Shown here piece by piece: positions 2,748 through 19,336 of a stretch of 64,000 nucleotides of DNA (position 1 is its first letter; each line of letters begins with the position of its first letter). Under the pieces are notes generated by a model, which saw nothing but the letters and a program-made list of their open reading frames with translations, was not told the origin of the DNA and ran no database searches. The translations under genes and the position numbers were made by a program. Origin of the DNA: a virus; the IMG/VR virus record IMGVR_UViG_3300045988_127881; one strand, 5' to 3'.

Positions 2748-2823
2748 ATCATTCTCTTTTTACGCAAAATGCCCGATTTGGTGGCACTTCTGTTTCACCA
2801 AAACGGACATCTTAACCACTTTG

Positions 2824-2831
2824 CAAATATA
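2824..2831 (-). promoter_or_regulatory. -7 box TATATTTG upstream of the Dit-like gene
   Basis: Plus strand reads CAAATATA, which is TAnnTTTG on the minus strand, 77 nt upstream of the ATG at 2747. No clean -33 TTTG at the expected spacing. Confidence 0.35.
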
Positions 2832-2867
2832 CAAATTACATTGAATATATGCAATCAGACGGAATAA

Positions 2868-3311
2868 TTATACATTCTCAGAAATCTCCTCGTTGACTTC
2901 TTCTTTCGTCTTTACTTCGTCAATTATTTTCTTGTTCTCTTCGTCAGTGACTTCCTCTGACTCTCTTGTTTTCATGTAGTGGTCCACAATCTTCAAGATG
3001 TCTTCTGTAACGTCTGCATCAACAATGTTTGAAGCACAATAAACCGATGTCACAAAGGCTACTGCGGCATTTAAGTCATCTTCGGTACGTCCCTCACCGA
3101 ACACGCATGAGTACAACAGGGTGTGTCCCATCGTGCCAGGAGCATAGCCTATATACCACTGCTTCGACACGGCATATACGGTGATGACACCCGTCTCTTC
3201 GTCAAGCATGTACAGGAAATTGTCAATCTGCACGTTCTTAACCTCTTTCTTCTCGGCATTTGCTGCCTCATTCTTCTCGGCATTTACTGCCTCGTTCTTT
3301 TCTTCTGTCAT
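2868..3311 (-). CDS. Hypothetical acidic protein (147 aa) with N-terminal EKNEA-NA repeat
   Basis: ORF track. Lies 28 nt downstream of the primase gene on the same strand. Confidence 0.6.
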   Translation of the reverse strand: MTEEKNEAVNAEKNEAANAEKKEVKNVQIDNFLYMLDEETGVITVYAVSKQWYIGYAPGTMGHTLLYSCVFGEGRTEDDLNAAVAFVTSVYCASNIVDADVTEDILKIVDHYMKTRESEEVTDEENKKIIDEVKTKEEVNEEISENV

Positions 3312-3338
3312 TTCTTCTTTATTTTATAGTTAAACAAA

Positions 3339-4820
3339 TCATACACCATCGCCTGCGACATCTTCAAATTCTGCGTCATCTTGCAGCTTCCATGCCTCCA
3401 GTGACAGCTCATTGGCTGTATAGGCTTCCACCTCTTCGCTGAAGCCGTACACCTTGTATTCTATCCCTGTCGCTGACCTCCTTCTGTTCTGGCCGCCAAA
3501 GCCCAGCCTTGTCATGGCCCTGCCAAAGGCAACTTGCGTCACGTCCTCAAAACTATTCTCATTGCAGAATATTTCAAGGCTCTTTCTCATTGCGGCAGAG
3601 GCAACCCATCTCGGACGCTCGCCCTCAGCTCTCGGTGATGATGAAAGATGAAGGTGCATGACCCAGGCCAAAAGTGGGTTGCTCATACCGATGGACATCA
3701 ATTTCTGACGCTCGCCGTTCTCACTCCTCGGGAACTTGTAGCCATGAAGCTTCAAATATCTGCCACCCCTCACTATCCAGTTCAGTATGCCAGGGTATTC
3801 TTCTTTCAGTTCCTCACCAAGGCTCTTGTTCTGCAAATGCTCTGGTATCGTCTCATTGAATATCAAATACAGGAAACGTCTGAAAAAGCCATAGCTCTTG
3901 TCACTCGTCACTGGCAGATTGTTGAAGTTGAATATCTGCCATGGCACATTGGTTATTGTGAACACATTGCCCCTCAAAAATCTCGCGTGCTGCTCCTCGC
4001 CACTAATATAGCTCTTGAAAGCAGCCTCCTTGCCAAACAGTTCCCTCTCACTTACCTCACCACTGTAATTTATATATTTGCCCACAAGCTGGCACCTGGC
4101 ACGCATGCCCTCATCACCATCTTTCAATATCGCACCAATACCCATGGTACTGATATTTTCCGCACCATAAACACCACGCACTACATCGTTTATCACGCTC
4201 TTGCCATTAGAACCATTGCCATACAAGGCCAAACAGTTCTCCACCTTAGCACCCATCTCACGCCTGTTCATGGTCGTCAAGCCCAAAAACATCTGCAACA
4301 ACAACCTGCTGTTCTTCTCTGGCAACACCTGCTTCAAAAAACTCTTCCACAACGGACAATCTGCCTTTGGGTCAAAATCGTAGTCGTGCAAATAAACCAC
4401 GTCCCACTGCTTGCCAAAAGGACGTATGTCACCCGTCGTCATGTCTACAACACCATTGCGGAAAGCACGTATGTTGAACCTCGGGTGCAACTCTCGCTCC
4501 ATCTTTACAGCCAAACGTACCTGCTCACGCAACATGCCCATCTTCGAGCGGACACCTGCATGGACACTCATGCGCTCTGTCAACTTCACCAAACTCCAAT
4601 ACAACAAGTCTGAATCCACTGGCTCGTATATCTTGCCGTTAAAACAATAATAACGACCACCAAACCACGCAAACATACTGTGAGCATACGTCTGGTATAT
4701 CTCAAAACCTAACATGGCAGCACGAGCGGCGTAATTCTCACTCGCAGAACATGCTAACTCCCACCTCGGAGCATCACTGTTCTCTACCAAGTCTATCAAC
4801 AACATTTCTCTATCTATCAT
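3339..4820 (-). CDS. Phage/plasmid primase, P4 family / D5-like NTPase
   Basis: 493 aa. Walker A LYGNGSNGKS. Overall layout matches the P4-primase C-terminal / D5 helicase family. Confidence 0.8.
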   Translation of the reverse strand: MIDREMLLIDLVENSDAPRWELACSASENYAARAAMLGFEIYQTYAHSMFAWFGGRYYCFNGKIYEPVDSDLLYWSLVKLTERMSVHAGVRSKMGMLREQVRLAVKMERELHPRFNIRAFRNGVVDMTTGDIRPFGKQWDVVYLHDYDFDPKADCPLWKSFLKQVLPEKNSRLLLQMFLGLTTMNRREMGAKVENCLALYGNGSNGKSVINDVVRGVYGAENISTMGIGAILKDGDEGMRARCQLVGKYINYSGEVSERELFGKEAAFKSYISGEEQHARFLRGNVFTITNVPWQIFNFNNLPVTSDKSYGFFRRFLYLIFNETIPEHLQNKSLGEELKEEYPGILNWIVRGGRYLKLHGYKFPRSENGERQKLMSIGMSNPLLAWVMHLHLSSSPRAEGERPRWVASAAMRKSLEIFCNENSFEDVTQVAFGRAMTRLGFGGQNRRRSATGIEYKVYGFSEEVEAYTANELSLEAWKLQDDAEFEDVAGDGV

Positions 4821-5087
4821 ACGTTAAATCCTTTAACATATCAACTTTTCTGCCAAAACAGCTGACAAATACCGATTTTTCGAGCTTTTTCTGCCTCCAA
4901 AAAACACCATTTTTCAACCATCTCGCAATTATTCAAAATGGAACACTTCTGCCAACATTGTTCGGAATTTCGGAACACTTTGACACTCAAATTATTCCCA
5001 TTTCCGCACTGAATGTTTAATAGTACCCACCCCGTTAATACCTCGCACTTTCCTTGCAAGCCAAAATATAACTCATGGATAACTATG

Positions 5088-5095
5088 CAAATATA
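5088..5095 (-). promoter_or_regulatory. Candidate -7 box TATATTTG for the primase operon
   Basis: Plus strand reads CAAATATA. About 270 nt upstream of the primase ATG. Confidence 0.3.
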
Positions 5096-5572
5096 CATAT
5101 TTTATTCAAAACGCCCAAATATCAATGATTTAGAGTTTTTGACATATACACTAAAACATACACTAATATGCTCCTCAACTTACATTTCGTTGTTTTTTAC
5201 TATGAGTGTACCTTTTTATAAAATGAACGATTTACCCGAAAATCAAGAAAACACAAAACACAAGAAAAAATAGAAATATATAAGGTACGAAAAATTAAAA
5301 AAAATAGACGGGAGGTGACCATTCTTTCGATATTTCCGCACAAAAGGGGGTTGTACGGGGTATTTTGCTATGTTTTATCCCGTTTTGAATTGTCGTAACA
5401 CCTTGGAAGTCAGATATTTGCTATATTATACGCATAATATAGCGCAAAGCGCACTTTGTCGCTTGTGGAGGGCCGCAAATGTCAGTGACAGACAAACACA
5501 AAGCACACCAACAAACAACACGACACGCCCAAAACACGGCTAAAATACACGTGTCTTTGTGCTTGTGCTTTC

Positions 5573-5630
5573 CTCTCTTTGTCTGTCTGTCTCTTTGTCT
5601 CTTTGTCTCTTTGTCTCTTTGTCTGTCTGT
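5573..5630. repeat. 8-bp tandem repeat GTCT(C/G)T(T/C)T, about 7 units
   Basis: Units are in register from 5581 to 5628: GTCTGTCT, GTCTCTTT x4, GTCTGTCT. Part of an imperfect inverted repeat with 5487..5506. Confidence 0.9.
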
Positions 5631-5740
5631 TTTTCCTTTCGTACCCGTCCCGTTTTGCCTGAATGCACGTGTTAACAACCAGTTAAATTCATACATAGAA
5701 CGTTAAATGCAAGGATGTAGGGAAATTAGTTGCTTGTTTA

Positions 5741-5772
5741 TTTGGTTGTATATTTATTTAGTTGTATCTTTG
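5741..5772 (+). promoter_or_regulatory. Bacteroidota-type promoter for the plus-strand small-gene block
   Basis: -33 TTTG at 5741..5744 and -7 TATCTTTG at 5765..5772, 20 nt apart. Confidence 0.5.
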
Positions 5773-5835
5773 TAATACAAAATAAGGGTTGAGGCGTCAA
5801 CCGCTGCAAAGTATTGCAGTCTTGGGAGTAAAAAA

Positions 5836-5867
5836 GTGCCTTTGGTGGTTGCCGCCACCAAAGGCAC
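5836..5867 (+). other. 13-bp perfect hairpin in the 5' leader
   Basis: GTGCCTTTGGTGG / CCACCAAAGGCAC. Two smaller hairpins lie upstream at 5786..5801 and 5803..5818. No U-tract. Confidence 0.7.
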
Positions 5868-5965
5868 GGAAAACTACCGAATCGGCAGCGTATTAGCATA
5901 CGCGTGCAAAGGTAGTATTTATTTCCGAATCTTTGATATTATTAATAACTAAATACTACAAGATC

Positions 5966-6484
5966 ATGGATAATGTAAAGACTTTAGGCGCTCTCAAGAG
6001 AGGTGCAATAACCGAGTTAAACGAATTTTTTGCAAAACCTACAGAAGTATTTAAGGCGCTCCGAGAGATAGCAAAAGATAAAGAGTCTAATTTGTACGCG
6101 ATTCTTTGCGAGTTAGGCGTAAAACCCTCTAAAATCGGTTTTAATTCGTTTGGTAGGTTTTGCGTCTCATTCGGCGGAAACGCTGAGATAGTTTGCGAAG
6201 CAATAAAACGCACGAATGGTATAACATACAAAAGCTATACTATATGTGACAGACAACCAAAAAAGTATATTGATTTACTCGTGCAATTACTCAAAGAAAA
6301 GAGAAAGCGAGAAAGCTATGCTACAAGGTGGCAAAAACACTTTGAGGCACGCGCCGCAAAGGAAGACAAAGCGAACGAAAAGCGTGTAAAAGCACTTGAA
6401 AAAATGGTGTCTGAACTCGTAAAATGCGGTTTGCCCGCTGAAATTGCAAGGGCGAACGCTGTAAACATTTTGAAAATCGCCTGA
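5966..6484 (+). CDS. Hypothetical protein (172 aa)
   Basis: ORF track 5933..6484 uses a TTG start. First ATG is at 5966 (MDNVKTLGALKRG...). Confidence 0.6.
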   Translation: MDNVKTLGALKRGAITELNEFFAKPTEVFKALREIAKDKESNLYAILCELGVKPSKIGFNSFGRFCVSFGGNAEIVCEAIKRTNGITYKSYTICDRQPKKYIDLLVQLLKEKRKRESYATRWQKHFEARAAKEDKANEKRVKALEKMVSELVKCGLPAEIARANAVNILKIA

Positions 6485-6489
6485 ACTTG

Positions 6490-6521
6490 TAGACCTCCCA
6501 AAAATGGGAGGTCTATTTTTT
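6490..6521 (+). terminator. Intrinsic terminator
   Basis: TAGACCTCCCA-AAAA-TGGGAGGTCTA followed by T6. Confidence 0.75.
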
Positions 6522-6522
6522 G

Positions 6523-7237
6523 CCCTTTATGGTACACGGATTCCGTTCGATTCGGAGTAAGGGCACAACATATTTAAGCACTTACAAAGTGCTTAAAGGC
6601 GTGCAAAATGCACGCTGCACGACTACAAACCGCGATTTGTTGGCAGTTGGCCGCGTTGGCTGATAACTTACAAAGTGCGTGCAAAGTGGGACAAATAGCC
6701 GCGTTGGCTACCTACTTATGCACAACCTTTGGCAAATTGTATGGAGGTTGTACGGCAAATTCGCTCTTTGACTTATTGGACAAAAAAATATTGGTTTGCC
6801 TGTAATGTATACAGGCGTGCACGCACTCGCTTAAATAGTTCGGGGTGCGTGCCGAATCCTCGTAACTATTCGCGTGCTATTTTAGTGCGTTGCCGGCCGT
6901 TTTAAATAGGTTGAATCTAAATACATTAATTACGGACGCATCCGTGATTGATTCGGGTAATTTTGACGGCTTTATACCTTCCTATTTTGTACACAAAATC
7001 CGAAAGGAACAAAAGTGCACGCGCCCAGTTTGGGCCGTATGGTAAAAATAGGGCAAAACTTTTCCCTCGTGTAGGGGTTTTTGGCCGTGCCTTTATGGCA
7101 AGGAACGGACAAACAGCGGAAATACAAAGAGAAACGAGTAATTTTTTTTTGGTGGAATGGTTAACCACCTGACGTAACACGTACGCACGCGAAAATTCGT
7201 GTGTACGTGCAAGTATTAACCAATAAAAAATAAAAAT
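6523..7237. other. 715-bp non-coding, hairpin- and repeat-rich region (ncRNA or iteron/origin candidate)
   Basis: Only implausible ORFs. Duplicated 12-13-mers (6580/6666, 6650/6698), GCGTGCAAA x3, and at least 8 hairpins. Confidence 0.6.
7216..7237 (+). promoter_or_regulatory. Array leader motif, degenerate copy
   Basis: TTAACCAATAAAAAATAAAAAT directly before the ATG at 7238. Confidence 0.6.
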
Positions 7238-7477
7238 ATGTCTTTTTGGTGTTATGACAAAAAAGCAATTTCTTGTATGCGTGAAAACGCAAACAAGATA
7301 GAATTTATTTTGCTGCCTCTTGGCGGCAACTTTGACAGCCATGTTAACAACGTTATTACTAACGTTGAGAATTTTGGCTGCACATACGACAGCACAAACG
7401 AAATTTTAGAGGACTTCGTTTGGGAAGCAAAGAGATACGTTGAGTATGTTATTAAAACGTACTACAAAAACGTATAA
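7238..7477 (+). CDS. Hypothetical small protein (79 aa)
   Basis: ORF track. Leader motif upstream and hairpin downstream. Confidence 0.6.
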   Translation: MSFWCYDKKAISCMRENANKIEFILLPLGGNFDSHVNNVITNVENFGCTYDSTNEILEDFVWEAKRYVEYVIKTYYKNV

Positions 7478-7481
7478 CGAT

Positions 7482-7542
7482 GACGCAAGCAATTTGTTTT
7501 GCTTGCGTCAACTTTATTATCAACCCTATAAAACCAATAAAA
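7482..7542 (+). promoter_or_regulatory. Inter-cassette unit: hairpin plus leader motif
   Basis: Hairpin 7482..7509 (GACGCAAGCAA/TTGCTTGCGTC). Leader 7518..7542 TATCAACCCTATAAAACCAATAAAA. Confidence 0.8.
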
Positions 7543-7812
7543 ATGAAAGCTATTGAACTGTTGAAAAGAGTCACAAAACACGATTCGGAATGTCATGTTT
7601 GCTATATCTATGATATGGCAGATATGGATGTAGTAAGCGGAACTTTTGACAAAAAAGCTGAATATTTACTCACAGAAAAACCATTCCGTGATGCTTTTGG
7701 CATACATGTGACTTCAGATTGCGCCTTATACGGCGCAATTTACAGCGAAACGCTGTGCGCTCCCAAAGAGCCAGAGAATAAACTATGGTTTGCGTACATC
7801 ATTGAGGACTAA
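7543..7812 (+). CDS. Hypothetical small protein (89 aa)
   Basis: Track ORF 7480..7812 runs through the hairpin and leader. ATG at 7543 follows the leader motif (MKAIELLKRV...). Confidence 0.6.
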   Translation: MKAIELLKRVTKHDSECHVCYIYDMADMDVVSGTFDKKAEYLLTEKPFRDAFGIHVTSDCALYGAIYSETLCAPKEPENKLWFAYIIED

Positions 7813-7817
7813 AAGGT

Positions 7818-7868
7818 ATTCGGGTGTTTGACGCGCCCGAATGCTACGAAAACCAAAAAACCAATGAT
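7818..7868 (+). promoter_or_regulatory. Inter-cassette unit: hairpin plus leader motif
   Basis: Hairpin 7818..7842 (ATTCGGG/CCCGAAT). Leader 7848..7868 GAAAACCAAAAAACCAATGAT. Confidence 0.7.
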
Positions 7869-8018
7869 ATGAAAGATTTAGTACTTCTTATTTCTGTAAT
7901 AGCATTTGCAATCAGTTTGTTATGCTGTAATTTCCTCGCCATTGTGGCAAGTTTAATCCCGTTTTTCAGTGCCTTCATACCAGAGTTGTATGATGGCGCA
8001 AAAGAGGAAATGCCGTAA
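7869..8018 (+). CDS. Small membrane protein (49 aa)
   Basis: ATG at 7869 after the leader. MKDLVLLISVIAFAISLLCCNFLAIVASLIPFF is hydrophobic. Confidence 0.5.
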   Translation: MKDLVLLISVIAFAISLLCCNFLAIVASLIPFFSAFIPELYDGAKEEMP

Positions 8019-8020
8019 TT

Positions 8021-8082
8021 CTATCGCCTGCAATTTGGTTTGTAGGCGATAGCTTTTTATCAACCCTATAAAACCAATAAAA
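8021..8082 (+). promoter_or_regulatory. Inter-cassette unit: hairpin plus leader motif
   Basis: Hairpin 8021..8052. Leader 8058..8082 is identical to 7518..7542, and identity continues into the first codons. Confidence 0.8.
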
Positions 8083-8505
8083 ATGAAAGCTACATTAAAA
8101 TTCAGTTTCGGCAATGTTGTAATGTCTTCACGCTTAGTTGATGGCGATTATCAATTTAATGGAGACGACTCCCGATTTAACCATCACTACCGCTTTCAGG
8201 TAAGAATCCAATTTAATGAGAATGTAAGATATTTCTCTTATTGGACCTCATTCGAGGACTGGAGAAACGGGAAAGAACAACTTGACGAGTCCGACTACAT
8301 GAACGCATTAAATTGCGTATTGTCGGACTCATACGCTGCACAGTGTTCATTTAAGGACTTTTGCAGCGAGTTCGGTTATAGTGATGATAGCATCAAAGCC
8401 TTGAAAACATACAAGGAATGTAAGCGAAATGCTGAAAGACTTAATAAACTATTCAGCGGTTTGGATTTATTGTCGGTCCAAAACGAACTCGAAGAAATGA
8501 TGTAA
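8083..8505 (+). CDS. Hypothetical protein (140 aa)
   Basis: ORF track. Leader motif directly upstream. Confidence 0.65.
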   Translation: MKATLKFSFGNVVMSSRLVDGDYQFNGDDSRFNHHYRFQVRIQFNENVRYFSYWTSFEDWRNGKEQLDESDYMNALNCVLSDSYAAQCSFKDFCSEFGYSDDSIKALKTYKECKRNAERLNKLFSGLDLLSVQNELEEMM

Positions 8506-8509
8506 AAAA

Positions 8510-8568
8510 CCGACACACCTCTTGCAAGGTGTGTCGGTACATTGTTTAACCCACTTAAAACCAATAAG
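8510..8568 (+). promoter_or_regulatory. Inter-cassette unit: hairpin plus leader motif
   Basis: Hairpin 8510..8537 (CCGACACACCT/AGGTGTGTCGG). Leader 8545..8568 TTTAACCCACTTAAAACCAATAAG. Confidence 0.8.
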
Positions 8569-8814
8569 ATGAAGATTTTCAGTGAACAAAGTTTGCGCCA
8601 TTTCGATTTTTGGGGTGGTGCTCAGGAAAATGCAAATGAATTGTCATGGGAACAATTCGACAACCTTGAATCAATTCTCGAAGATGCCTATCCCGATGGC
8701 ATTGACGCAACCGACTTGAATGACATGATGTGGTTCGAGTTCGACACCATCAAAGAATGGTTAGGAATCGAGGACGAAGAAGACGAGGACGAAGAAGACG
8801 AAGAAGAAGACTAA
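8569..8814 (+). CDS. Small acidic protein with poly-E/D tail (81 aa)
   Basis: ATG at 8569 after the leader. Ends in GIEDEEDEDEEDEEED. Confidence 0.65.
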   Translation: MKIFSEQSLRHFDFWGGAQENANELSWEQFDNLESILEDAYPDGIDATDLNDMMWFEFDTIKEWLGIEDEEDEDEEDEEED

Positions 8815-8817
8815 AAA

Positions 8818-8879
8818 CAGGGTGCGCATTGTCGAAAGTGCGCACCCTGCAATTTATAAACCAATTAAAACCAAATATT
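8818..8879 (+). promoter_or_regulatory. Inter-cassette unit: hairpin plus leader motif
   Basis: Hairpin 8818..8849 (CAGGGTGCGCA/TGCGCACCCTG, loop contains ATTGTCG). Leader 8855..8879. Confidence 0.8.
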
Positions 8880-9765: not shown

Positions 9766-9769
9766 CAAT

Positions 9770-13118: not shown

Positions 13119-13124
13119 TCCAAT

Positions 13125-13479: not shown

Positions 13480-13484
13480 TTAAA

Positions 13485-13542
13485 ATGCAGCATAATTTTG
13501 TTATGTGCTGCATACCTCACAACCCAACTAAAACCAATTAAC
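13485..13542 (+). promoter_or_regulatory. Inter-cassette unit: hairpin plus leader motif
   Basis: Hairpin 13485..13513 (ATGCAGCA/TGCTGCAT). Leader 13518..13542. Confidence 0.8.
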
Positions 13543-13857
13543 ATGAAAAGTTTATTAGAACTATCCGAAGAACATCGTCAGATGCTTAACGACATCTCCG
13601 ACAAGGACATGTGCGCCATCGAAACGTTCTTGCAACATCGCGAAAGGAACACCTACTATTTCCGTACAGCTGTCAAACTGCACGACATTGTCAACAATCT
13701 CACATTCAAGGCCATCGGGGTAGGTATCACACACAAAGGGACTTTATCCGCTATAATTGACGAATATTATAGCATAGACCTCATGCAATTCGACTACCTG
13801 TCAATTAACCGGGTCTTAATGCAAATCGGCATGGAAACAGACAACAAGGTGAGCTGA
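13543..13857 (+). CDS. Hypothetical small protein (104 aa), tandem paralog
   Basis: ATG at 13543 after the leader (MKSLLELSEEHRQ...). Confidence 0.6.
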   Translation: MKSLLELSEEHRQMLNDISDKDMCAIETFLQHRERNTYYFRTAVKLHDIVNNLTFKAIGVGITHKGTLSAIIDEYYSIDLMQFDYLSINRVLMQIGMETDNKVS

Positions 13858-13895
13858 TACAAGGCAGCGCGAGGGGTTCGACTCTCCTCACACCT
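13847..13895 (+). ncRNA. Mini tRNA-like element (acceptor-like stem plus canonical T arm only)
   Basis: AGGTGAG...CACACCT closing stem (6 of 7 pairs). T arm is AGGGG-TTCGACT-CTCCT. Overlaps the stop codon of the previous ORF and occupies the usual inter-cassette hairpin position. Confidence 0.3.
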
Positions 13896-13897
13896 GC

Positions 13898-13931
13898 AAA
13901 ACCAACAAACCAACTTAAAAAAACCAACGCA
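13898..13931 (+). promoter_or_regulatory. Array leader motif, extended copy
   Basis: AAAACCAACAAACCAACTTAAAAAAACCAACGCA before the ATG at 13932. Confidence 0.7.
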
Positions 13932-14240
13932 ATGGATAAAAATATTGCCAGCAATACACTTACAGACAAGTTAAGGAATGACGCAATCTCATCTATCAAT
14001 GAATATTGCAAAGAACTTGACTTCGACGGAGTTCTCCGCCTCAACAATCCTATACAAGGCTACAACGTCCACACAAATGAGCCTATTACCATTGTGGGTG
14101 TCCGTATCGGCACAGACAACGCTGCATTAAGTGTTGAAGCGAAAGGATATATCATTGATTATGCCTACGAATTACAGGACGCTGACATCAACTCGCTACT
14201 TTCCATTTCAGTAGCTATTATGGACGGACTTACTTATTAA
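13932..14240 (+). CDS. Hypothetical small protein (102 aa), tandem paralog
   Basis: ORF track. Confidence 0.6.
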   Translation: MDKNIASNTLTDKLRNDAISSINEYCKELDFDGVLRLNNPIQGYNVHTNEPITIVGVRIGTDNAALSVEAKGYIIDYAYELQDADINSLLSISVAIMDGLTY

Positions 14241-14353
14241 AATCTCTCCTAATGTGGCATTTGGTTGACACATTGGGGCATCTCAAACCAACTAAAATCA
14301 CGTACAACGCCAAAAATGGCATTGTCGCACACCCTCCGTATTACAAAAACAAC

Positions 14354-14361
14354 TATATTTG
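14354..14361 (+). promoter_or_regulatory. Candidate internal -7 box TATATTTG
   Basis: Matches TAnnTTTG in the 228-nt gap 14241..14468. No clean -33. Confidence 0.35.
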
Positions 14362-14447
14362 CAATTAGTACAGATAAAGAACAACGCTGATAATATTTTT
14401 CATTCTATCATTAGTGGTGCGGATTTACTTCCATGCCACTAACCATG

Positions 14448-14468
14448 TTTAACCAATTAAAACCAATA
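14448..14468 (+). promoter_or_regulatory. Array leader motif copy
   Basis: TTTAACCAATTAAAACCAATA before the ATG at 14469. Confidence 0.8.
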
Positions 14469-15215
14469 ATGAGATATTTTTTTTATTACGCGTCTGTTGC
14501 CTATATACAGGATACCTATAACAAAAGGTTCTTGGATAAATTTAGAAGTGAAGGAGATTATCGTAAGCTACTACTAATAGCTGAGACCTATGACTCATAC
14601 GGTGCCATAGACTTGAAATACACCTATAAAAGTGCTACGCATAACAATGGTGACACTTTGCTGATAGAAGATGAGCATTACGCTTTGACGTATAATTCTT
14701 CAAATGGCGGCACCTATGAGTTGTTTCGCAAGGAGACAGGAATAGGACTCCGTAACTATATTGCTCAAAACGGATTACCTTCTGAGGTATCAAAGGACAT
14801 TGAAGAGTTGGCAAAATCGCACTCAGAACCGACCCCAAAAATTAAGGCAAAGGAAATCGTTAGCGCCATTTTCAAGTACGGGCTGTTAAGCGCATACGAG
14901 GCGTGCGAGCTAAAAGAGGAGTACAAAACCCTATCCGACAAAAAGAAAAAGTATAAAGGCTGGACCACTGAGGAGAAATACCTTAGTGATAACTGCATCA
15001 CGCCCATAGCTTACGGCATGATTGTTTGTGGCGCACTATGCGCCATCTGTTTCCTTGCTTGCATTGGCTCTGTATTTCTCATCTCCGCCTGTGGGTGGGG
15101 TGGTGCAGTAGTCTATGCTGCACTTCTTTTCATCGTCCTTTACATAGCCTCTATTTACTTCTACCAGAGGTTCTATTGGTACGAAATGCCTAAGTATAAC
15201 ATCGAAAACAGATAA
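14469..15215 (+). CDS. Membrane-anchored hypothetical protein (248 aa)
   Basis: ATG at 14469 after the leader. C-terminal hydrophobic segments (IAYGMIVCGALCAICFLACIGSVFLISACGWGGAVVYAALLFIVLYIASIYF). Confidence 0.6.
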   Translation: MRYFFYYASVAYIQDTYNKRFLDKFRSEGDYRKLLLIAETYDSYGAIDLKYTYKSATHNNGDTLLIEDEHYALTYNSSNGGTYELFRKETGIGLRNYIAQNGLPSEVSKDIEELAKSHSEPTPKIKAKEIVSAIFKYGLLSAYEACELKEEYKTLSDKKKKYKGWTTEEKYLSDNCITPIAYGMIVCGALCAICFLACIGSVFLISACGWGGAVVYAALLFIVLYIASIYFYQRFYWYEMPKYNIENR

Positions 15216-15226
15216 CACACACCATC

Positions 15227-15439
15227 ATGACTATAATTGCTATTATTTGCGTCCTTATTATTGCAGCTCTCTTTTTCGGGGGTCTCTGGTATATTGCAGC
15301 ACTCATCATCGGCATTCCGCTCGCCTATGGCTTGCACAAGCTTCTCATGATGTTCTTCGCTGACTATTTCAAGAAGAAACTTCAGAAATACTGCGAAAAG
15401 AAAGGACTGACTTTCGACCTTGACGAACTGCCCGACTAA
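15227..15439 (+). CDS. Small membrane protein (70 aa)
   Basis: ORF track. Two hydrophobic helices. Confidence 0.55.
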   Translation: MTIIAIICVLIIAALFFGGLWYIAALIIGIPLAYGLHKLLMMFFADYFKKKLQKYCEKKGLTFDLDELPD

Positions 15440-15456
15440 ACCTGTGTCGAGAAAAG

Positions 15457-15508
15457 CCATCACTTGTGTTGTTACAAGTGATGGTACTATTACCAATAAA
15501 ACCAATTT
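15457..15508 (+). promoter_or_regulatory. Inter-cassette unit: hairpin plus leader motif
   Basis: Hairpin 15457..15484 (CCATCACTTGT/ACAAGTGATGG). Leader 15488..15508 TATTACCAATAAAACCAATTT. Confidence 0.8.
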
Positions 15509-16354
15509 ATGAAAACAACCCTTTATGAAGCATACAGGAAAAAATACCCTAACTATGCAGATAAAACCAAAGAAAGGTTCGTAACCTCCACAGGGTGCGA
15601 TTTTACTTGGGGTAACATGACCAAGTCTAACCTTTACGACTATGTCAGCTATCTAAAGACGGTCATGGCAAAGTCGTCAGCACGCACAATGTGCGCAATG
15701 CTAAAATCTGTCTTGCGCACCTACGAAGATGAGATTACGCTACCAAAAAATTGGGAAGATTCCATCTACGTCAAAAAGGAGGCTTCTCAGCAAGTATTCC
15801 TCTCCGACGACGAAATCAAAATGGTTTCTAACTACAACCCAACAACCGAAAAAGAGCGCATCGTGAAAACAATGTTTCTCTTGGGTTGCCTTACAGGGGC
15901 AAGACACTCCGACTTCTTGAAGTTCTCTAAAGCAAATATCACGCAGGAGGGCTTTTTAAGATACGTGTCCATCAAGACGCACATCGAGGCTATTGTCCCC
16001 ATAGCACCAATGGTTAACAGGCTGATTGACGACTTGTCTGCCATCAAAGACACTTCTATGGCCGACACCACATTCAACCGAATATTACGGGATATTTGCC
16101 AAAGTGTGGGCATCGACTCCGAATGCACGCTTTACAGGAGGGGCGAATTTTCCACGTCCAACAAATGTTGCTTTGTGTCATCACACGCTGCACGCAGGTC
16201 TTTCGCCACAAATCTCTACCTTAGAGGGGCTGACCTTTACTCCATCTCCAAAATGATGGGACATTCCTCTGTCGACATGACAGCTGGATATATTTGTTGC
16301 GGACTACGAAACCTCTCACCCGAAGTTAAAGATTACTTTGAACAATTTTGTTGA
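15509..16354 (+). CDS. Tyrosine recombinase (281 aa, no arm-binding N-domain); second recombinase in the window
   Basis: Catalytic signature TGARHSD ... SHAARRSF ... GHSSVDMTAGYI (R, H-x-x-R, H, Y). Confidence 0.85.
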   Translation: MKTTLYEAYRKKYPNYADKTKERFVTSTGCDFTWGNMTKSNLYDYVSYLKTVMAKSSARTMCAMLKSVLRTYEDEITLPKNWEDSIYVKKEASQQVFLSDDEIKMVSNYNPTTEKERIVKTMFLLGCLTGARHSDFLKFSKANITQEGFLRYVSIKTHIEAIVPIAPMVNRLIDDLSAIKDTSMADTTFNRILRDICQSVGIDSECTLYRRGEFSTSNKCCFVSSHAARRSFATNLYLRGADLYSISKMMGHSSVDMTAGYICCGLRNLSPEVKDYFEQFC

Positions 16355-16374: not shown

Positions 16375-16650
16375 ATGTTGACATCAGACCTTAAAGCAAA
16401 AGAGGCTATCTACGAGGTCGTAGAGCCTCGCTATTTTGAGAAAAGTGTTTCGCTCTCCGAGGAGGACGAGCAAGGTTCTATATACGATTTCTTGAAAGGA
16501 ATCGGCACAGAAGAATACACTGAATGGCTCGCCGAGCACGAGAGCGACTACTATTTTCAGGTAGTCCGCGTAGACGGCTCTTTTTACGCTGTCGCCTATG
16601 AAGATTATACAACACCTGCATGGGCAGTCGAAATAGAACCTGTAAAATAG
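16375..16650 (+). CDS. Hypothetical acidic protein (91 aa)
   Basis: First ATG at 16375 within track ORF 16348..16650. Confidence 0.55.
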   Translation: MLTSDLKAKEAIYEVVEPRYFEKSVSLSEEDEQGSIYDFLKGIGTEEYTEWLAEHESDYYFQVVRVDGSFYAVAYEDYTTPAWAVEIEPVK

Positions 16651-16656
16651 TGTAAT

Positions 16657-17037
16657 ATGGACAGACAACTAATGTTTTATTTCGGAACGAACGGGAGCAG
16701 TGATTATGTCCCCATTCCTGTTCGAGAGGGGGACATCTTGCCACTTTACCCTGAACACGATGCATGGGAAAATTTAGAACGCACCTTGTCCAATTTAGCA
16801 ATAAAAAAATATACTTTTTTCCGTGGCTATTTTCTGGGCACAGAGTGGACACTGTATCTCAAACCATGGTCGGTAGATGATGGAAGATGCGGAAGTTTTA
16901 CATCTCTATTCTGGGAGGGGGCGCACACCATTGAAGAAATTGAAGCTTTTATAAAGAAAACTCCATTTTTGCAGCGTCAGTTTAGTAAGCCTATTGATAC
17001 AAATAGATTTTGGACGGTGAACCATGCTGGCACTTAA
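16657..17037 (+). CDS. Hypothetical protein (126 aa)
   Basis: ORF track. Confidence 0.6.
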   Translation: MDRQLMFYFGTNGSSDYVPIPVREGDILPLYPEHDAWENLERTLSNLAIKKYTFFRGYFLGTEWTLYLKPWSVDDGRCGSFTSLFWEGAHTIEEIEAFIKKTPFLQRQFSKPIDTNRFWTVNHAGT

Positions 17038-17039
17038 AA

Positions 17040-17066
17040 AAGCCCCACCGTCACGGGGTGGGGCTT
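17040..17066 (+). terminator. GC-rich hairpin terminator
   Basis: AGCCCCACC / GGTGGGGCT directly after the stop at 17037. Confidence 0.6.
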
Positions 17067-17103
17067 ACCACGAGATTTAACTCTCGACTCTTTATCTACA
17101 ATA

Positions 17104-17183
17104 GTAGAAATTATGCTCATTAGAGCGTTTCAATCCTCAACCCTTGATAGGGTTGACAACGCAAAGGTAAGCATAATTTCTAC
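17104..17183. repeat. Perfect 14-bp inverted repeat enclosing the CRISPR-repeat-like unit
   Basis: GTAGAAATTATGCT (17104..17117) and AGCATAATTTCTAC (17170..17183). Confidence 0.9.
17127..17160 (-). CRISPR. Solitary CRISPR repeat-like unit, type I-C-like architecture (no array, no cas)
   Basis: Minus strand reads GTTGTCAACCCTATCAAGGGTTGAGGATTGAAAC: 8-bp stem, 4-nt loop and a GGATTGAAAC tail, as in I-C repeats recalled from memory. Confidence 0.5.
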
Positions 17184-17230
17184 AAGTTGTATCAATCAAA
17201 TCAATTTTATCACTAAAAAAATCAGAAATT

Positions 17231-17812
17231 ATGACGACCAATTTATCTTTATCAAAGGTCTTTGACACACTCGTAAAACGCGAAGATGGCATATTGCTTT
17301 GCAAACACAGCGAAATCTATTGTGGTGCATTCGGCTCTCAACTCTGCGATTGGGATATTCTTATCAAAGATGACTACGGCCAGCTTTGTCACCCCAACGA
17401 ACAACTCAACTATTCTGATGCCTGGTTAGAGGACATGTACGAAAAAGTCGAGCCAGGCGACGAGGACGACGATACGCTCTATATGAACACCGATTTTGGC
17501 GAAGATAAAATACCCGTTCGCAAACTTCACGAAATCCCATCAGACATATTGCAGACTTTCGTCGATGTCGAACATGGCATCAATCGTGACGAAATCTGCA
17601 TTACAGACGATGAGGTTTTGCATGGCAAGGTATACCAAGCACCATGCTGCATACAGCAGTCGTACCCAAATCGTCCATACGAAGATGCCTTCCTTTTCGT
17701 AGGTGAGGACGGAGAAGAAATCTACATCAATCGCACATGCCCATTCTTTGAAGATGAAAGCAGAGATGTGTTTGAAGAAATAACAAAAGAGGAATTTGAA
17801 ACATTCTGCTAA
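17231..17812 (+). CDS. Hypothetical acidic protein (193 aa)
   Basis: ORF track. Confidence 0.65.
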   Translation: MTTNLSLSKVFDTLVKREDGILLCKHSEIYCGAFGSQLCDWDILIKDDYGQLCHPNEQLNYSDAWLEDMYEKVEPGDEDDDTLYMNTDFGEDKIPVRKLHEIPSDILQTFVDVEHGINRDEICITDDEVLHGKVYQAPCCIQQSYPNRPYEDAFLFVGEDGEEIYINRTCPFFEDESRDVFEEITKEEFETFC

Positions 17813-17829
17813 TATTAAAACCGGCAAAC

Positions 17830-18114
17830 ATGAACGATAATATTATCACCCAGTTAGGGTACAAAATTGAAATGAGCATTAGCGGTTATTACCGCCTAAT
17901 GAAAAACAATGAGGTCATCTATGACGACTCTGCCTGTGACGACCTGAACGAAGATTATGACACCGCATCATCTTTCTTTGAAAGCTACCTTAATGAGTAT
18001 GCAAAAGTATACGAATATAAAGGGCACAATGTCGTGGAAGATGAGAAATTCTACCACATCGGAAAAGAGAGCTTCAACAAGTCAGAGTGGACTCTTGACG
18101 AAGCAATAGATTAA
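17830..18114 (+). CDS. Hypothetical acidic protein (94 aa)
   Basis: ORF track. Confidence 0.6.
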   Translation: MNDNIITQLGYKIEMSISGYYRLMKNNEVIYDDSACDDLNEDYDTASSFFESYLNEYAKVYEYKGHNVVEDEKFYHIGKESFNKSEWTLDEAID

Positions 18115-18153
18115 GTAACAAACGCTGCGCTATCGGCATGACGGGCAACTATT

Positions 18154-18660
18154 ATGGCATACTTAAATAAGGCACAGTACGATTACAGGAGAGAGTCGGC
18201 AGCAGCACGCAATATCAGTAACGAAGAAATTGCAGTGCAGAATGGCATGACAGAGAAACAGGCCGAACTTATCAGCGAACTTGCAGCACAACGCCACGAG
18301 ATGCACTGCAACATAGATAGACTCGTGTGCGACGGCTCTTATGACAAGATAGGCGAAACACTCGCGTTAACAAACGAAGAGATAAAGATGTCGGGGCTGC
18401 CACCCGTATGCGGATTGGACGATTTGTCTCACTGTCTATCAGAGACAATGGCTTACATCGATATAGACGACCTTGATTTGCTGTTCGAGACTGTACAGTT
18501 CCCCGATGATGATGACGAGAGAGAGCAAAAAATCGCGGAAGAATCCGAGAGAATATATGACGAGTGGGAAAACCTGAATGGCAATATAGAGAAATATCTC
18601 GCCATGATTGATAAAAAGTACGGCACTTCTTGGTGTCCTACTGGTGCTTTGAGGGTCTAA
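18154..18660 (+). CDS. Hypothetical acidic protein (168 aa)
   Basis: ORF track. Confidence 0.65.
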   Translation: MAYLNKAQYDYRRESAAARNISNEEIAVQNGMTEKQAELISELAAQRHEMHCNIDRLVCDGSYDKIGETLALTNEEIKMSGLPPVCGLDDLSHCLSETMAYIDIDDLDLLFETVQFPDDDDEREQKIAEESERIYDEWENLNGNIEKYLAMIDKKYGTSWCPTGALRV

Positions 18661-18675
18661 ATCATCAAAATAAGT

Positions 18676-18702
18676 AACTCGGTGGCCTGCTACCACCGAG
18701 TT
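18676..18702. terminator. Hairpin between convergent genes
   Basis: AACTCGGTGG / CCACCGAGTT between 18660(+) and 18710(-). Confidence 0.6.
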
Positions 18703-18709
18703 CCACACT

Positions 18710-19228
18710 TCAACCATTCTGCCTGCGCTTGTGCTTTACGTAAAGTGGGCAGTCCTTACACGTCAACGGCAAGTAGGTGTGCACAGTCTTTTCCTCCTTG
18801 TCCACCTCGTCTTTTTTCATCTGAGTAAGGTCGGCATATTTCATCAATATGTCTGCACGCTTCGGGTCATTCGCTGGCATCTTGAAAGCTATACGCACAA
18901 GTTCGCTCATCACATCTTCCTTGCTCATCTGTCTGGCGGCATCTATGCTGTCAAATTCTTCCTGTATGGCATTATCCACAGCCTTGCTCGCCTCCTTGTC
19001 CGCTTTCTTCTTTGCCTTCATTATGTAGTTGGCAAAAACCTCCCTGTCTACTATTTCTTTCATTTTTTGCTTGTGCCATTCGTCACTATATGCAGCACCA
19101 GGGCCGTATATCAGCACATAGGCATCTTGCTCTTTCCAGCCCATCAAAGTCAAGTCGGCCATAGCCCTCTCGCGCGCGTCAAGCCCTATTTTGCCGTTTG
19201 CGGTCTTAAATCCTTTCGTATAATCCAT
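18710..19228 (-). CDS. Possible small terminase subunit-like protein (172 aa)
   Basis: Pattern ...YSDEWHKQKMKEIVDREVFANYI ... SKEDVMSELVRIAF...KRADILMKYADL resembles Terminase_2-type TerS by eye. No TerS lies next to terL. Confidence 0.35.
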   Translation of the reverse strand: MDYTKGFKTANGKIGLDARERAMADLTLMGWKEQDAYVLIYGPGAAYSDEWHKQKMKEIVDREVFANYIMKAKKKADKEASKAVDNAIQEEFDSIDAARQMSKEDVMSELVRIAFKMPANDPKRADILMKYADLTQMKKDEVDKEEKTVHTYLPLTCKDCPLYVKHKRRQNG

Positions 19229-19281
19229 ATTTCAAAAAATAAAGTAGTACTTTTGTAGCGTCAATCTTCATTGACACCAAA

Positions 19282-19303
19282 ATTTATTGGTTTTTTTTGT
19301 TAA
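19282..19303 (-). promoter_or_regulatory. Leader-motif-like copy on the minus strand
   Basis: Minus strand reads TTAACAAAAAAAACCAATAAAT, 54 nt upstream of the ATG at 19228. Confidence 0.5.
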
Positions 19304-19307
19304 TAGT

Positions 19308-19336
19308 AGCCCAGGCTAAAAGCCTGGGCTTTTTTT
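19308..19336. terminator. Hairpin terminator at the end of the tape measure gene
   Basis: AGCCCAGGC / GCCTGGGCT. The T-run lies on the plus strand and the A-run on the minus strand. Confidence 0.6.

Follow-up and report, generated by a model that had tools for sequence, protein, structure and literature searches.

The closest known analogue of the gene cassettes described here is the PeSL element of T4-like phages, for which homologous recombination at the shared elements has been proposed (PMC2839356, PMC4122927). The cassette build of the present array is new; unlike in true PeSLs, a promoter is not evident in the leader, because it contains no Bacteroides TAnnTTTG −7 box. The phage that carries the array is LoVEphage-like, and its gene order can be compared with those of LoVEphage, Dulem virus 40 and Porphyromonas phages.

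The window is the whole stretch of 64,000 nucleotides that was analyzed, from a phage genome of approximately 68 kb that is present here in its excised form. Relatives connect window positions 1 and 63988, and the approximately 4 kb of the genome that they carry between window positions 1 and 64000 lie outside the window. As the original prediction described, the tail operon is split: the tape measure protein (TMP) gene and the Dit-like/Tal-like pair (2747..1), all on the minus strand, are 16.5 kb apart. In this interval, a 1.1 kb divergent control region separates an SF3 helicase from approximately 25 small plus-strand ORFs with an arm-less Xer-like recombinase, and these are followed by a TerS-like gene of 172 aa. 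We consider, with a probability of about 0.8, that 2748..19334 is inherited vertically as an integral part of its phage, a temperate, LoVEphage-like siphovirus of Bacteroidota, and forms the phage's own replication, packaging and early-gene module, which consists of three functional units. Among the LoVEphage-like Bacteroides phages, which are common in the gut, one branch shares this placement of the module. The features are as follows.

1..2229, minus strand: Tal-like distal tail/baseplate hub gene, N-terminal 743 aa only, continuing beyond the window edge (phrog_19846, 8.5e-34)
2226..2747, minus strand: Dit-like gene, 173 aa, always directly upstream of Tal (synteny and homology)
2818..2845, minus strand: Bacteroidota-type promoter-like box in front of Dit/Tal, with TATATTTG at 2831..2824
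2868..3311, minus strand: acidic protein, 147 aa, downstream of the helicase
3339..4820, minus strand: D5_N and SF3 helicase, a P4-family "primase C-terminal" protein (PF08706, PF19263; phrog_864, 3.6e-48)
4821..5965: divergent control region and candidate origin
5966..7477, plus strand: promoter-proximal operon ORFs of 172, 65 and 79 aa with long structured spacers
7478..15508, plus strand: cassette array, ORFs of 49-264 aa, including the paralogues 9834..10589 and 12336..13118
15509..16354, plus strand: arm-less Xer-like tyrosine recombinase, 281 aa, preceded by a hairpin and leader (PF00589)
16375..18660, plus strand: six tightly packed distal ORFs without hairpin/leader punctuation, varying among close relatives
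18710..19228, minus strand: candidate small terminase subunit, 172 aa, directly downstream of TMP (predicted fold)
about 19308..19330: GC hairpin (GCCCAGGCT / AGCCTGGGC) between TMP and the 172-aa gene, T-run on the plus strand
19335..26771, minus strand: tape measure protein, 2478 aa (PF20155 TMP_3, 5.7e-18; phrog_9959, 1.2e-65)

The identity of the TMP gene was borne out by both family matches. The hairpin, which was said to end this gene, is indeed present five bases beyond the TMP stop; however, its T-run is on the plus-strand side, so that a role as intrinsic terminator is more plausible for plus-strand transcription than for the transcript of TMP. The Tal-like ORF is homologous to "tail protein" annotations in LoVEphage (45% identity, tblastn), in Dulem virus 40 and in Porphyromonas phages, where it shows 25% identity (tblastn) to a "tail" gene placed after TMP and a 173-aa gene. 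The Dit-like product is 31% identical (4.5e-15) to that of the 172-aa gene located ahead of Tal in LoVEphage, and is homologous to the genes at the same position in Dulem 40 and in the relative L029. The family searches gave no match for it, and the fold search was run on an AF2 model with a pLDDT of 47, which is too poor for use. In Porphyromonas phage013a, a 173-aa gene lies between TMP and the Tal homologue, with no detectable similarity to the Dit-like gene of the window (E 0.26). The earlier label is thus kept as Dit-like, by position and homology only.

Insertions recur at the TMP|Dit junction, which holds 0, 1, approximately 7 or approximately 30 genes in different relatives. In the more distant relatives outside the branch, Dit/Tal follow TMP after 0 or 1 gene: none in the Porphyromonas phage and one moron in L009 and L029. 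LoVEphage has a moron insert of approximately 7 genes (3.2 kb). A homologue of the junction gene of LoVEphage, L009 and L029 is found elsewhere in the window, next to the main integrase region.

36201..36704, plus strand: "GLCxQW..W" moron, 167 aa, between MuF and attP/Int (tblastn, 32% identity, 2e-26)
36958..38172, minus strand: main integrase, 404 aa, with arm-binding domain (phrog_1)

The tail genes are split because the helicase/recombinase module sits at the TMP|Dit junction in this branch. The TAnnTTTG box ahead of Dit/Tal was confirmed on the minus strand at 2824..2831, and the junction would tolerate insertions because Dit/Tal has its own promoter.

One of the two proposed readings was that the block is a nested mobile element or a PICI/P4-like satellite. 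Such an element would sit in the tail operon of a helper and use its own recombinase, helicase/origin and TerS for excision, replication and the hijacking of packaging. The recombinase, P4-type helicase and TerS-like gene do resemble the hallmark gene set of satellites, and the phage has a separate integrase (36958..38172) and a separate DnaD-like initiator (45838..46680), both as claimed before. However, each of the 16 close relatives compared (from IMG/VR, ENA and Logan, with mosaic indels inside the array) has the block at this position, and so do excised whole-phage contigs; contig k99_23724 (67.2 kb, excised form) has both the Int|MuF junction and the order TMP, 172-aa gene, array. In the public assembly collection, 1051 indexed blocks contain the 172-aa protein in exactly this form. 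The direct-repeat search gave a longest exact repeat between the block borders of 9 nt, a length reached by 62% of shuffles, so that the 8-mer CACCAAAA noticed earlier is due to chance and no flanking att-like repeat rises above it.

Three anchor genes of the block, which encode the helicase, the short recombinase and the 172-aa protein, recur as orthologues in LoVEphage, in Dulem virus 40 and in dozens of prophages of Bacteroidota, where they have diverged about as far as TerL, MCP and Tal. Between the window and LoVEphage, the identity is 37-52% in tblastx segments and 30% over the full-length alignment for the helicase, 38-53% for the recombinase and 53% for the C-terminus of the 172-aa protein, compared with 54-71% for TerL (tblastx segments), 48-53% for MCP and 45% for Tal. 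The comparison with Dulem 40, which may be misassembled, and the full-length helicase alignment agree with this picture. In a GTDB scan, the Bacteroidota helicase homologues of at least 30% identity with readable flanks were all in phage contexts, in three layouts; the helicase is followed by Dit and Tal in at least 10 diverse loci, and LoVEphage-type relatives have the same module between MuF and the integrase. Among the 66 genome loci, no such homologue was in a stand-alone satellite-like context. The three anchor genes are core genes of the family, whose genomic positions differ between branches. The different position in LoVEphage might suggest mobility; however, the three genes are non-contiguous, and the order in which they follow each other varies from branch to branch, as would not be possible for a discrete element. 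The satellite reading is rejected as highly improbable.

Among the points that would speak against its reading, the original prediction named that the primase and TerS-like genes are the only such genes of the phage. In the window, beyond which lie the remaining approximately 4 kb, the block's helicase and TerS candidate are the only ones found; none of the other ORFs of at least 250 aa resembles either in a scan against PHROGs. The 172-aa gene gave no family match in profile searches, and its earlier TerS-like label is instead supported by the predicted fold. The AF2 model (pLDDT 74) has an N-terminal helix bundle and a long helix, and in the BFVD Foldseek search the annotation "terminase small subunit" is carried by hits 2-5, 8, 11, 14 and 15 (E 2.6e-3 to 6e-2, prob 0.95-1.0), with low TM-scores of 0.3-0.4. 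The top PDB match, the SF6 TerS DNA-binding domain, falls short of significance (E 2.1). In L031-L034 and L046, homologues are located immediately behind TerL-portal-MuF, and no TerS gene was found beside TerL in this phage, LoVEphage or Dulem 40. Judging from the model and these positions, the gene most likely encodes the phage's own small terminase subunit.

The product of 3339..4820 consists of D5_N and DUF5906/SF3 helicase domains (TIGR01613, 115.6 bits, above the cut-off of 108.7) and can be aligned from end to end with the helicases of LoVEphage and Dulem 40. It had been called a primase; domain searches found no primase catalytic domain, and only approximately 70 aa precede D5_N. The 147-aa acidic protein has no family match, and a 44% identical homologue is at the same position in L030. 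The gap upstream of the helicase proved repeat-rich as described, with the following elements.

5082..5109, minus strand: promoter-like box upstream of the helicase
5574..5624: pyrimidine-rich tandem repeat, 8 bp x 6.4
5726..5771: tandem repeat, 16 bp x 2.9
5765, plus strand: TAnnTTTG
5836..5867: hairpin, 13 bp

The boxes at 2818..2845 and 5082..5109 are 82% identical over 28 nt. The L030 equivalent of the region has a purine-rich tract of different sequence. The position, the repeats and the purine tract point to a putative replication origin in 4821..5965.

The whole 16.5 kb could alternatively be a foreign accessory island that only this lineage has recently received, through horizontal transfer, in its tail operon. 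The GC content of the array is 0.42 compared with 0.46 in the structural genes, its GC3 is also lower, the position is branch-specific, and LoVEphage and Dulem 40 lack homologues of the cargo. However, codon usage links the array to the other early region of the phage (RSCU r = 0.81) and the helicase and 172-aa gene to the structural genes (r = 0.75), and a 59% identical paralogue is common to the block and the early region. The anchors are family core genes, and the helicase-Dit-Tal linkage is old and widespread. Recent acquisition of the whole is therefore quite unlikely. The branch-specific position and the hypervariable array agree with the lineage-specific island proposed earlier; nevertheless, the block holds core replication, recombination and probably packaging genes, so that it is not simply an inserted island.

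The array, for which about 30 small ORFs were predicted, has approximately 25 ATG ORFs; those at 5966..7477 gave no family matches. In each cassette, a small ORF is preceded by a conserved AACC..AAAACCAAT leader and, ahead of that, by a perfect hairpin of 10-13 bp whose sequence is unique. The 15 inter-ORF spacers examined (56-134 nt) have one build, in which a stop codon is followed by a stem-loop, the leader and ATG. The stem-loop is a perfect hairpin in 14 of them and a T-arm-like element in one, and the spacer MFE z-scores are −3 to −9. The leader consensus is TT(T)AACC..T(A/T)AAAACCAAT, with the ATG 2-14 nt behind it (2-7 nt in 12 of 13), and matches of its PWM at a score of at least 17 occur on the plus strand only, between 7511 and 15479. 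The identity is 25% in the stem arms compared with 46% in the leader. The contents of the array turn over completely between relatives; the window has in common with L023 and L025 only TMP, the 172-aa gene, the recombinase and the helicase. Among the 16 relatives, 18 of 35 similarity breakpoints are in spacers compared with 21% expected (p = 8e-5), an enrichment to which BLAST segments stopping where conserved leaders begin or end could contribute in part; the other 17 are inside ORFs.

The recombinase has PF00589 and no arm-binding domain, in line with the arm-less enzyme predicted. It aligns end to end with the XerA/C/D models, with scores under their cut-offs, and is a conserved anchor with orthologues in LoVEphage, Dulem 40, L023, L025, L031, L032, L036 and others. 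As the sole conserved gene inside a completely variable one-directional array, it could belong to an integron-like platform, in which structured, attC-like inter-ORF elements are recombined to capture and shuffle small ORFs site-specifically. The hairpins conserve structure rather than sequence, as attC sites do, the breakpoints are enriched at spacers, and the recombinase has weak partial matches to integron-integrase models. However, these matches cover the common catalytic motif only, with no sign of the IntI-specific insertion, and the gene is distal and co-oriented instead of divergent at the promoter end beside an attI-like site. The stems are perfect, whereas attC typically has extrahelical bases; LoVEphage and Dulem 40 have the recombinase without such spacers, and nearly half of the breakpoints are inside ORFs. 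In LoVEphage the recombinase adjoins ParA, which suggests multimer resolution. The integron-like reading is accordingly quite improbable, and the enzyme may serve multimer resolution or cyclisation. Integration of the whole phage is carried out by the 36958..38172 enzyme, whose neighbors are MuF in excised-form contigs or bacterial GH95/M20 genes in integrated ones.

In the phage's own module, as we prefer to read the interval, the 172-aa gene directly after TMP would form the packaging unit. From the 1.1 kb control region, a plus-strand early/accessory operon would run through three leader genes, approximately 15 cassettes, the Xer-like recombinase and six ORFs, and a minus-strand operon would express the SF3 (P4/D5 type) helicase and the 147-aa acidic protein; Dit and Tal would be transcribed behind the second, near-identical promoter box. 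The hairpin of each cassette resembles a terminator, and the conserved leader between it and the small ORF is A-rich. The array would be a hyperplastic region, whose cargo is swapped wholesale between relatives with exchange points clustering at cassette borders, probably because the common leader or hairpin serves as a site of homologous recombination, in the way suggested for PeSLs; the phage's own Erf/exonuclease system may be well suited to this.

Host takeover or counter-defence is the probable role of the cargo. Known anti-defence and defence families gave no match to any array ORF of the window, so that a counter-defence role is suggested by the ArdA encoded in the array of one relative, L025, and by acidity and variability. 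One spacer differs in its structured element.

13858..13931, plus strand: T-arm-like spacer (GGGGTTCGACTCTCC) with an acceptor-like closing stem, replacing the hairpin

Neither ARAGORN nor Rfam called this element. Across 16 such elements, from the window and its relatives, the T-stem shows compensatory covariation in 4 of 6 pairs.

The phage in the window is a temperate siphovirus-type phage of Bacteroidota with a total genome of about 68 kb. Its main features are as follows.

2747..1, minus strand: Dit-like and Tal-like genes
3339..4820, minus strand: SF3 helicase gene
4821..5965: 1.1 kb gap
15509..16354, plus strand: arm-less tyrosine recombinase gene, within a plus-strand array of small ORFs
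18710..19228, minus strand: gene for a 172-aa protein
19335..26771, minus strand: tape measure (TMP) gene, head-tail operon
29883..31058, minus strand: MCP gene, head-tail operon
32233..33933: TerL gene, then portal and a MuF-like gene, transcription divergent from the head-tail operon
36958..38172: main integrase gene, with the CI/S24 repressor next
39.2-57.4 kb, plus strand: early region with Erf, exonuclease, SSB, NinB, Ant, NinG, DnaD-like initiator, methyltransferase and PAPS reductase
after the early region, minus strand: group of genes with the endolysin

In relatives, positions 1 and 63988 of the window are joined by about 4 kb, which indicates that the genome is circularly permuted and that no more than the remainder of Tal and a few tail genes is missing from the window. 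The neighbors of the integrase differ by metagenome contig: MuF is found in the excised form, as in the window, and bacterial GH95 and M20 genes in the integrated form. The integrated copies (L098, L099 and L100, where L-numbers denote sequences retrieved during the analysis) adjoin genes for an M20 peptidase and a GH95-family glycoside hydrolase of 1370 aa, which indicates an attachment site near these genes in a Bacteroidales chromosome. A megablast search with window positions 1-25000 gave no nucleotide-level relative among GenBank phages. In a public assembly collection, exact copies of the 172-aa protein are indexed in 1051 blocks, typically on contigs of 64-68 kb, and the phage clade is very common in human gut metagenomes. 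In the minus-strand group, with the early region on one side and the lysis genes on the other, a 396-aa protein (60076..61266, −) has two PHROG matches, one to a transcriptional regulator and one to a metalloprotease (ImmA/IrrE-like), and might provide an additional regulatory switch.

The canonical tail module of siphoviruses is TMP-Dit-Tal, as in SPP1, TP901-1 and lambda-like phages. The window retains the same gene types in the same one-strand order, whereas 16.5 kb separates TMP from Dit, and most of the roughly 30 genes in between are on the opposite strand; Dit and Tal are transcriptionally coupled to the helicase gene instead of TMP. The split of the tail operon claimed in the original prediction was borne out: TMP, a hairpin 5 bases past its stop codon, the helicase, the arm-less recombinase and the Dit-like and Tal-like genes are all present. 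Also confirmed were the minus-strand TAnnTTTG box at 2824..2831 ahead of this gene pair, the 1.1 kb gap with its repeats, and the existence of a separate integrase and a separate initiator. The hairpin, which had been read as ending the minus-strand TMP gene, has its T-run on the plus-strand side. Dit is marked by an N-terminal beta-sandwich fold and Tal by a gp27-like N-terminal domain. The label "Dit-like" is supported by homology and position but not by fold, as the model has a pLDDT of 47, too poor to be useful, and the fold search gave weak baseplate or tail-tube matches only. The two genes are putatively Dit and Tal by homology to annotated tail proteins and by the order TMP-173 aa-Tal in a Porphyromonas phage. 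The arrangement shows that the coupling of Dit and Tal to TMP can be broken.

One branch of a known and highly prevalent phage family conserves this split of the tail operon, which arose through the placement of a core replication/recombination module at a permissive junction. Close relatives (90-96% nucleotide identity; IMG/VR, ENA and Logan) all hold the block at the same place, with mosaic indels within the plus-strand array. In the intermediate relatives L023 and L025, whose 172-aa gene is 46% identical, the layout is that of the window, with TMP and the 172-aa gene followed by an array on the opposite strand that includes the recombinase, and then the helicase; the window has no array ORF in common with them beyond these four genes. 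In the synteny check proposed with the prediction, TMP adjoins Dit/Tal or is separated from them by one moron in the more distant relatives (Porphyromonas phage013a, L029 and L009).

The nearest isolated phages are LoVEphage (MW660583; Van Espen et al. 2021, PMC8525569) and Dulem virus 40, with Tal proteins 45% and 39% identical, respectively. The window phage shares with LoVEphage and the LoVEphage-like phages (PV4-TP1, BI-TP1 and Dulem virus 40) a temperate siphovirus-type genome of about 70 kb, TerL and portal divergent from the head-tail operon, two tyrosine recombinases with a CI/S24 repressor beside Int, and orthologous TerL, portal, MCP, TMP, Dit-like, Tal, SF3 helicase, short recombinase and 172-aa genes. 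In LoVEphage, too, morons interrupt the TMP/Dit junction over 3.2 kb: Rha, KilA, a 170-aa moron and four further small genes. However, amino acid identity to LoVEphage is only 30-55%, with no nucleotide match, and the helicase orthologue, the 172-aa-gene homologue and the short recombinase (beside ParA) stand together between MuF and the main integrase in LoVEphage, whereas the module of the window stands between TMP and Dit. ParA, a tRNA cluster and a DGR-type reverse transcriptase are LoVEphage features, RecT in LoVEphage contrasts with Erf in the window, and the cassettes of hairpin and AACCAAT-type leader found in the window array are absent from both LoVEphage and Dulem virus 40.

Dulem virus 40 resembles the window in gene order: after the recombinase-array come, divergently, the helicase, then three small genes and the Dit and Tal genes. 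Its TMP lies elsewhere. In this genome (PP511379.1, L020-L022; 58109..67039), TMP has the opposite orientation to the head-tail operon, with the integrase in between, and is more than 20 kb away from Dit/Tal, which is either a genuine large rearrangement or an assembly error.

The window homologue of the TMP/Dit moron sits at MuF/Int, which indicates that the two permissive junctions carry swapped contents in the two branches. A family-wide replication/recombination module at alternative permissive junctions (TMP/Dit or MuF/Int) represents a large-scale relocation within one phage family. The "GLCxQWxxxW" family (138-172 aa) is encoded at 36201..36704 (+) in the window and at L018:10936-11448, L009:11636-12052 and L029:9441-9959. 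The family acts as a roving moron: LoVEphage, L009 and L029 carry its gene immediately behind TMP, in one orientation or the other, L033 and L046 carry it behind the helicase, and in the window it is flanked by MuF and attP.

A GTDB scan with the helicase alignment returned 66 loci, of which the 24 Bacteroidota loci with at least 30% identity were examined; the other 42 are more distant and belong to other phyla. All of the examined homologues with readable flanks lie in LoVEphage-like phages, in three layouts: the helicase with Dit and Tal 1-3 kb downstream (at least 10 loci, in Bacteroides, Muribaculaceae and Porphyromonadaceae), the LoVEphage type, and the 172-aa gene straight after TerL-portal-MuF. 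The corresponding GTDB scan with the 172-aa family alignment found nothing. A helicase match annotated as "Parabacteroides distasonis plasmid 22" (L185, NZ_OY725767.1; PLSDB/RefSeq) was discarded as plasmid evidence: it carries ileS, BamA, a capsule locus and one end of a LoVEphage-like prophage, and looks like a chromosomal contig mislabelled as a plasmid.

Phage satellites such as P4 and PICI/SaPI have their own att sites and autonomous copies, and are excised, replicated and packaged separately on helper induction. The block had been proposed to be such a satellite or another nested mobile element, and it resembles satellites in its tyrosine recombinase, its P4-family helicase by a repeat-bearing non-coding region and its TerS-like gene. 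It differs from them in having neither att sites nor autonomous copies, and in that its genes are dispersed and core to the phage family. In the border comparison, no attL/attR direct repeats above chance bound the block; the longest exact border repeat is 9 nt, a length reached by 62% of shuffles, and the 8-mer noticed earlier at both borders is a chance match. No stand-alone element was found among those of the 24 Bacteroidota helicase loci with at least 30% identity whose flanks were readable, and no repressor/derepression module or capsid-size redirection gene was found. One contig of 67.2 kb has both the excised-form junction and the block, so the excised whole phage includes it. The satellite reading was rejected because the block occupies the same site in all close relatives and because the trio of recombinase, helicase and TerS-like genes belongs to the core of the phage family and has diverged about as much as TerL, MCP and Tal. 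The same trio calls for caution in automated satellite/PICI calling and in the annotation of LoVEphage-like phages.

The other reading offered, a lineage-specific accessory (counter-defence) island, is half right: the placement is branch-specific and the array hypervariable, but the block includes the core replication/recombination module. In the proposed composition check, the codon usage of the array fits the other early region of the phage (r = 0.81), and that of the helicase and 172-aa genes fits the structural genes (r = 0.75).

The gene at 3339..4820 had been called a P4/D5-type primase. Its P4-type D5_N and SF3 helicase part was confirmed, with TIGR01613 at 115.6 bits against a cut-off of 108.7 and PF08706 and PF19263 above the gathering score, but no primase (AEP/Toprim) catalytic domain as in P4 alpha was found with Pfam or NCBIfam. 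Only about 70 residues precede D5_N, and the PHROG matches are confined to the C-terminal parts of primase profiles. No other window ORF of at least 250 aa resembles a helicase or TerS in PHROGs; within the window, this protein is the only helicase of the phage, and the 172-aa protein the only TerS candidate.

TerS proteins are marked by an N-terminal HTH DNA-binding domain and a helical oligomerisation core. The AF2 model of the 172-aa protein (pLDDT 74) gave many BFVD matches named terminase small subunit (probability 0.95-1.0, E 2.6e-3 to 6e-2, TM 0.3-0.4) and no significant match in the PDB. The sequence had no match in Pfam, PHROG, NCBIfam or PDB sequences, and its family profile gave nothing meaningful against PDB sequences. 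No TerS is found beside TerL in the window, LoVEphage or Dulem virus 40; the 172-aa gene is not adjacent to TerL in the window, and its homologues stand straight after TerL-portal-MuF in L031-L034 and L046.

The recombinase (PF00589, 2.3e-13) consists of a core-binding and a catalytic domain only, and its residues 35-264 align to positions 36-254 of the 263-position XerA model. Its scores are far under the equivalog cut-offs, which indicates a Xer-like protein and not XerC/D itself. A resolvase or cyclisation function is the more likely one for this enzyme, given that its LoVEphage orthologue is beside ParA. In LoVEphage (MW660583, 16342..18419), the short recombinase gene directly follows the ParA gene, which points to partition and resolution by a plasmid-like pair of proteins in that branch; the window showed no ParA.

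The 1.1 kb gap contains promoter-like boxes both ways, an 8-bp x 6.4 pyrimidine tract and a 13-bp hairpin; the counterpart of the tract in L030 is a purine tract of different sequence. The gap would act as a divergent control region, and is inferred to be the best candidate origin for the helicase. Leftward transcription would cover the helicase and a 147-aa acidic protein, and then a second promoter box (82% identical) would serve Dit/Tal. Rightward transcription would cover the cassette array, the Xer-like recombinase and six further ORFs, and would converge on the TerS candidate and TMP. The array cargo is probably for host takeover or counter-defence, because ArdA is present in the array of L025, 9/20 array proteins have a pI below 5, and the content is completely turned over. 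None of the array ORFs in the window matches a known defence or anti-defence family. It is a speculation that the array lies beside pac so as to enter the cell first on injection.

The cassette punctuation of this array, including its tRNA-like elements, is the most original part of the region. Fifteen inter-ORF spacers between 7478 and 15508 follow one build, with a stop codon, a stem-loop a few bases on, a T-rich stretch, a conserved leader and ATG. The stem-loop is a perfect 10-13 bp hairpin in 14 of the 15 and a T-arm-like element in the remaining one. The hairpin sequence is different in every spacer, with a mean arm identity of 25% and MFE z-scores of −3 to −9; the unique stems are not registered by the MAFFT alignment, and the stem statistics were computed directly. 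The leader has the consensus TT(T)AACC..T(A/T)AAAACCAAT and ends 2-7 nt before ATG in 12 of 13 cases and 14 nt before it in one, and the hairpin-to-ATG distance is 23-38 nt. Matches to the leader PWM with a score of at least 17 are confined to the plus strand within the array, with none elsewhere in the 64 kb. The same punctuation surrounds entirely different ORFs in L023, L025 and L030. Among 16 close relatives, 18 of the 35 breakpoints (end-points of similarity blocks) fall in spacers, against 21% expected (p = 8e-5).

In PHROG, Pfam, NCBIfam and PADLOC, the array ORFs were almost without matches; those obtained were to phrog_4273, phrog_14286 and phrog_7964 (all of unknown function) and to a hexapeptide repeat. 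The array marks sets of small, rapidly exchanged early ORFs as counter-defence candidates in Bacteroides. The ORFs at 9834..10589 and 12336..13118 (+) are paralogous (32% identity, 3e-23), which points to duplication within the cassette array. The beta-solenoid (hexapeptide-repeat, phrog_7964) ORFs at 11085..11879 in the array and 50089..50832 in the main early region (both +) are paralogues with 59% amino acid identity, and the array of L030 has two more copies.

An exact-pattern scan of IMG/VR for the leader gave mostly single chance matches, with clusters only in known relatives and three other contigs. An unrelated viral contig of 111 kb (L164, IMGVR_UViG_3300027736_000027) has a repeated element ahead of each small gene, ...CGTGTCAAAT..TACTTATATTTA.., then AACCAAT..AAACCAAT, then ATG, which amounts to a promoter-like box and a leader resembling that of the window. 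The AACCAAT-type leader may be a wider feature of Bacteroidota phages.

The closest described counterpart of this punctuation is the PeSL (promoter-early stem-loop). T4-like phages have this composite of terminator and promoter in their hyperplastic regions, where it has been proposed to let modules be shuffled via homologous recombination (Arbiol et al. 2010, PMC2839356; Comeau et al. 2014, PMC4122927). As in PeSL-type hyperplastic regions, a short composite of stem-loop and conserved motif is repeated between small ORFs of unknown function and restricted to variable regions between core genes, and breakpoints of indels and replacements between close relatives coincide with the motifs, the proposed sites of homologous exchange. 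In contrast to PeSLs, the array belongs to a temperate Bacteroidota siphovirus, a conserved Xer-like recombinase is embedded in it, and its stems, which are longer, perfect and each of unique sequence, give way in some spacers to tRNA T-arm-like elements. The conserved part also lies 2-7 nt (14 nt in one case) from ATG with no recognizable promoter, and no TAnnTTTG (Bacteroides promoter) box is found in the leader, which may therefore be a translational leader. The array extends the PeSL concept past T4-like phages to temperate Bacteroidota phages.

A bolder and rather improbable reading is that the array is a dedicated gene-cassette system, a phage-borne functional analogue of the integron, in which small counter-defence ORFs are accompanied by structured elements that serve as RNA processing or stabilizing signals and as DNA exchange sites. 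The punctuation would consist of unique perfect hairpins or tRNA-like acceptor/T-arm minihelices followed by the fixed leader. At the RNA level, the tRNA-like elements might punctuate a polycistronic early transcript, for example through RNase P-type cleavage; at the DNA level, the elements might be exchange sites, possibly for the embedded Xer-like recombinase. An integron has an IntI-type integrase divergent from attI/Pc, heading a cassette array with attC sites. Membership in integrons proper was rejected, as the recombinase is co-oriented and distal in the array, its matches to integron-integrase models are limited to the catalytic motif, and the stems are perfect.

The tRNA-like element replaces the hairpin in one spacer of the window (13858..13931) and in about a third of the spacers of L025. 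These elements have an invariant GGTTCRANTCC T-loop and a covarying stem (4/6 pairs compensatory), and are usually closed by an acceptor-like stem; no Rfam family and no ARAGORN tRNA was found in the spacers of the window and its relatives. The tRNA-like inter-ORF elements that the array provides are directly testable. Outside the block, just ahead of the first early gene, ARAGORN reports a "tRNA-???" with a 4-nt anticodon at 39198..39268 (+), with the acceptor stem GGCACA/TGTGCC and the T-arm GGGGTTCGATGCCCC. A T-arm-like sequence, GCTGGTTCGACTCCAGC, is also found outside the block at 40880..40925 (+), about 40 nt upstream of the Erf gene.
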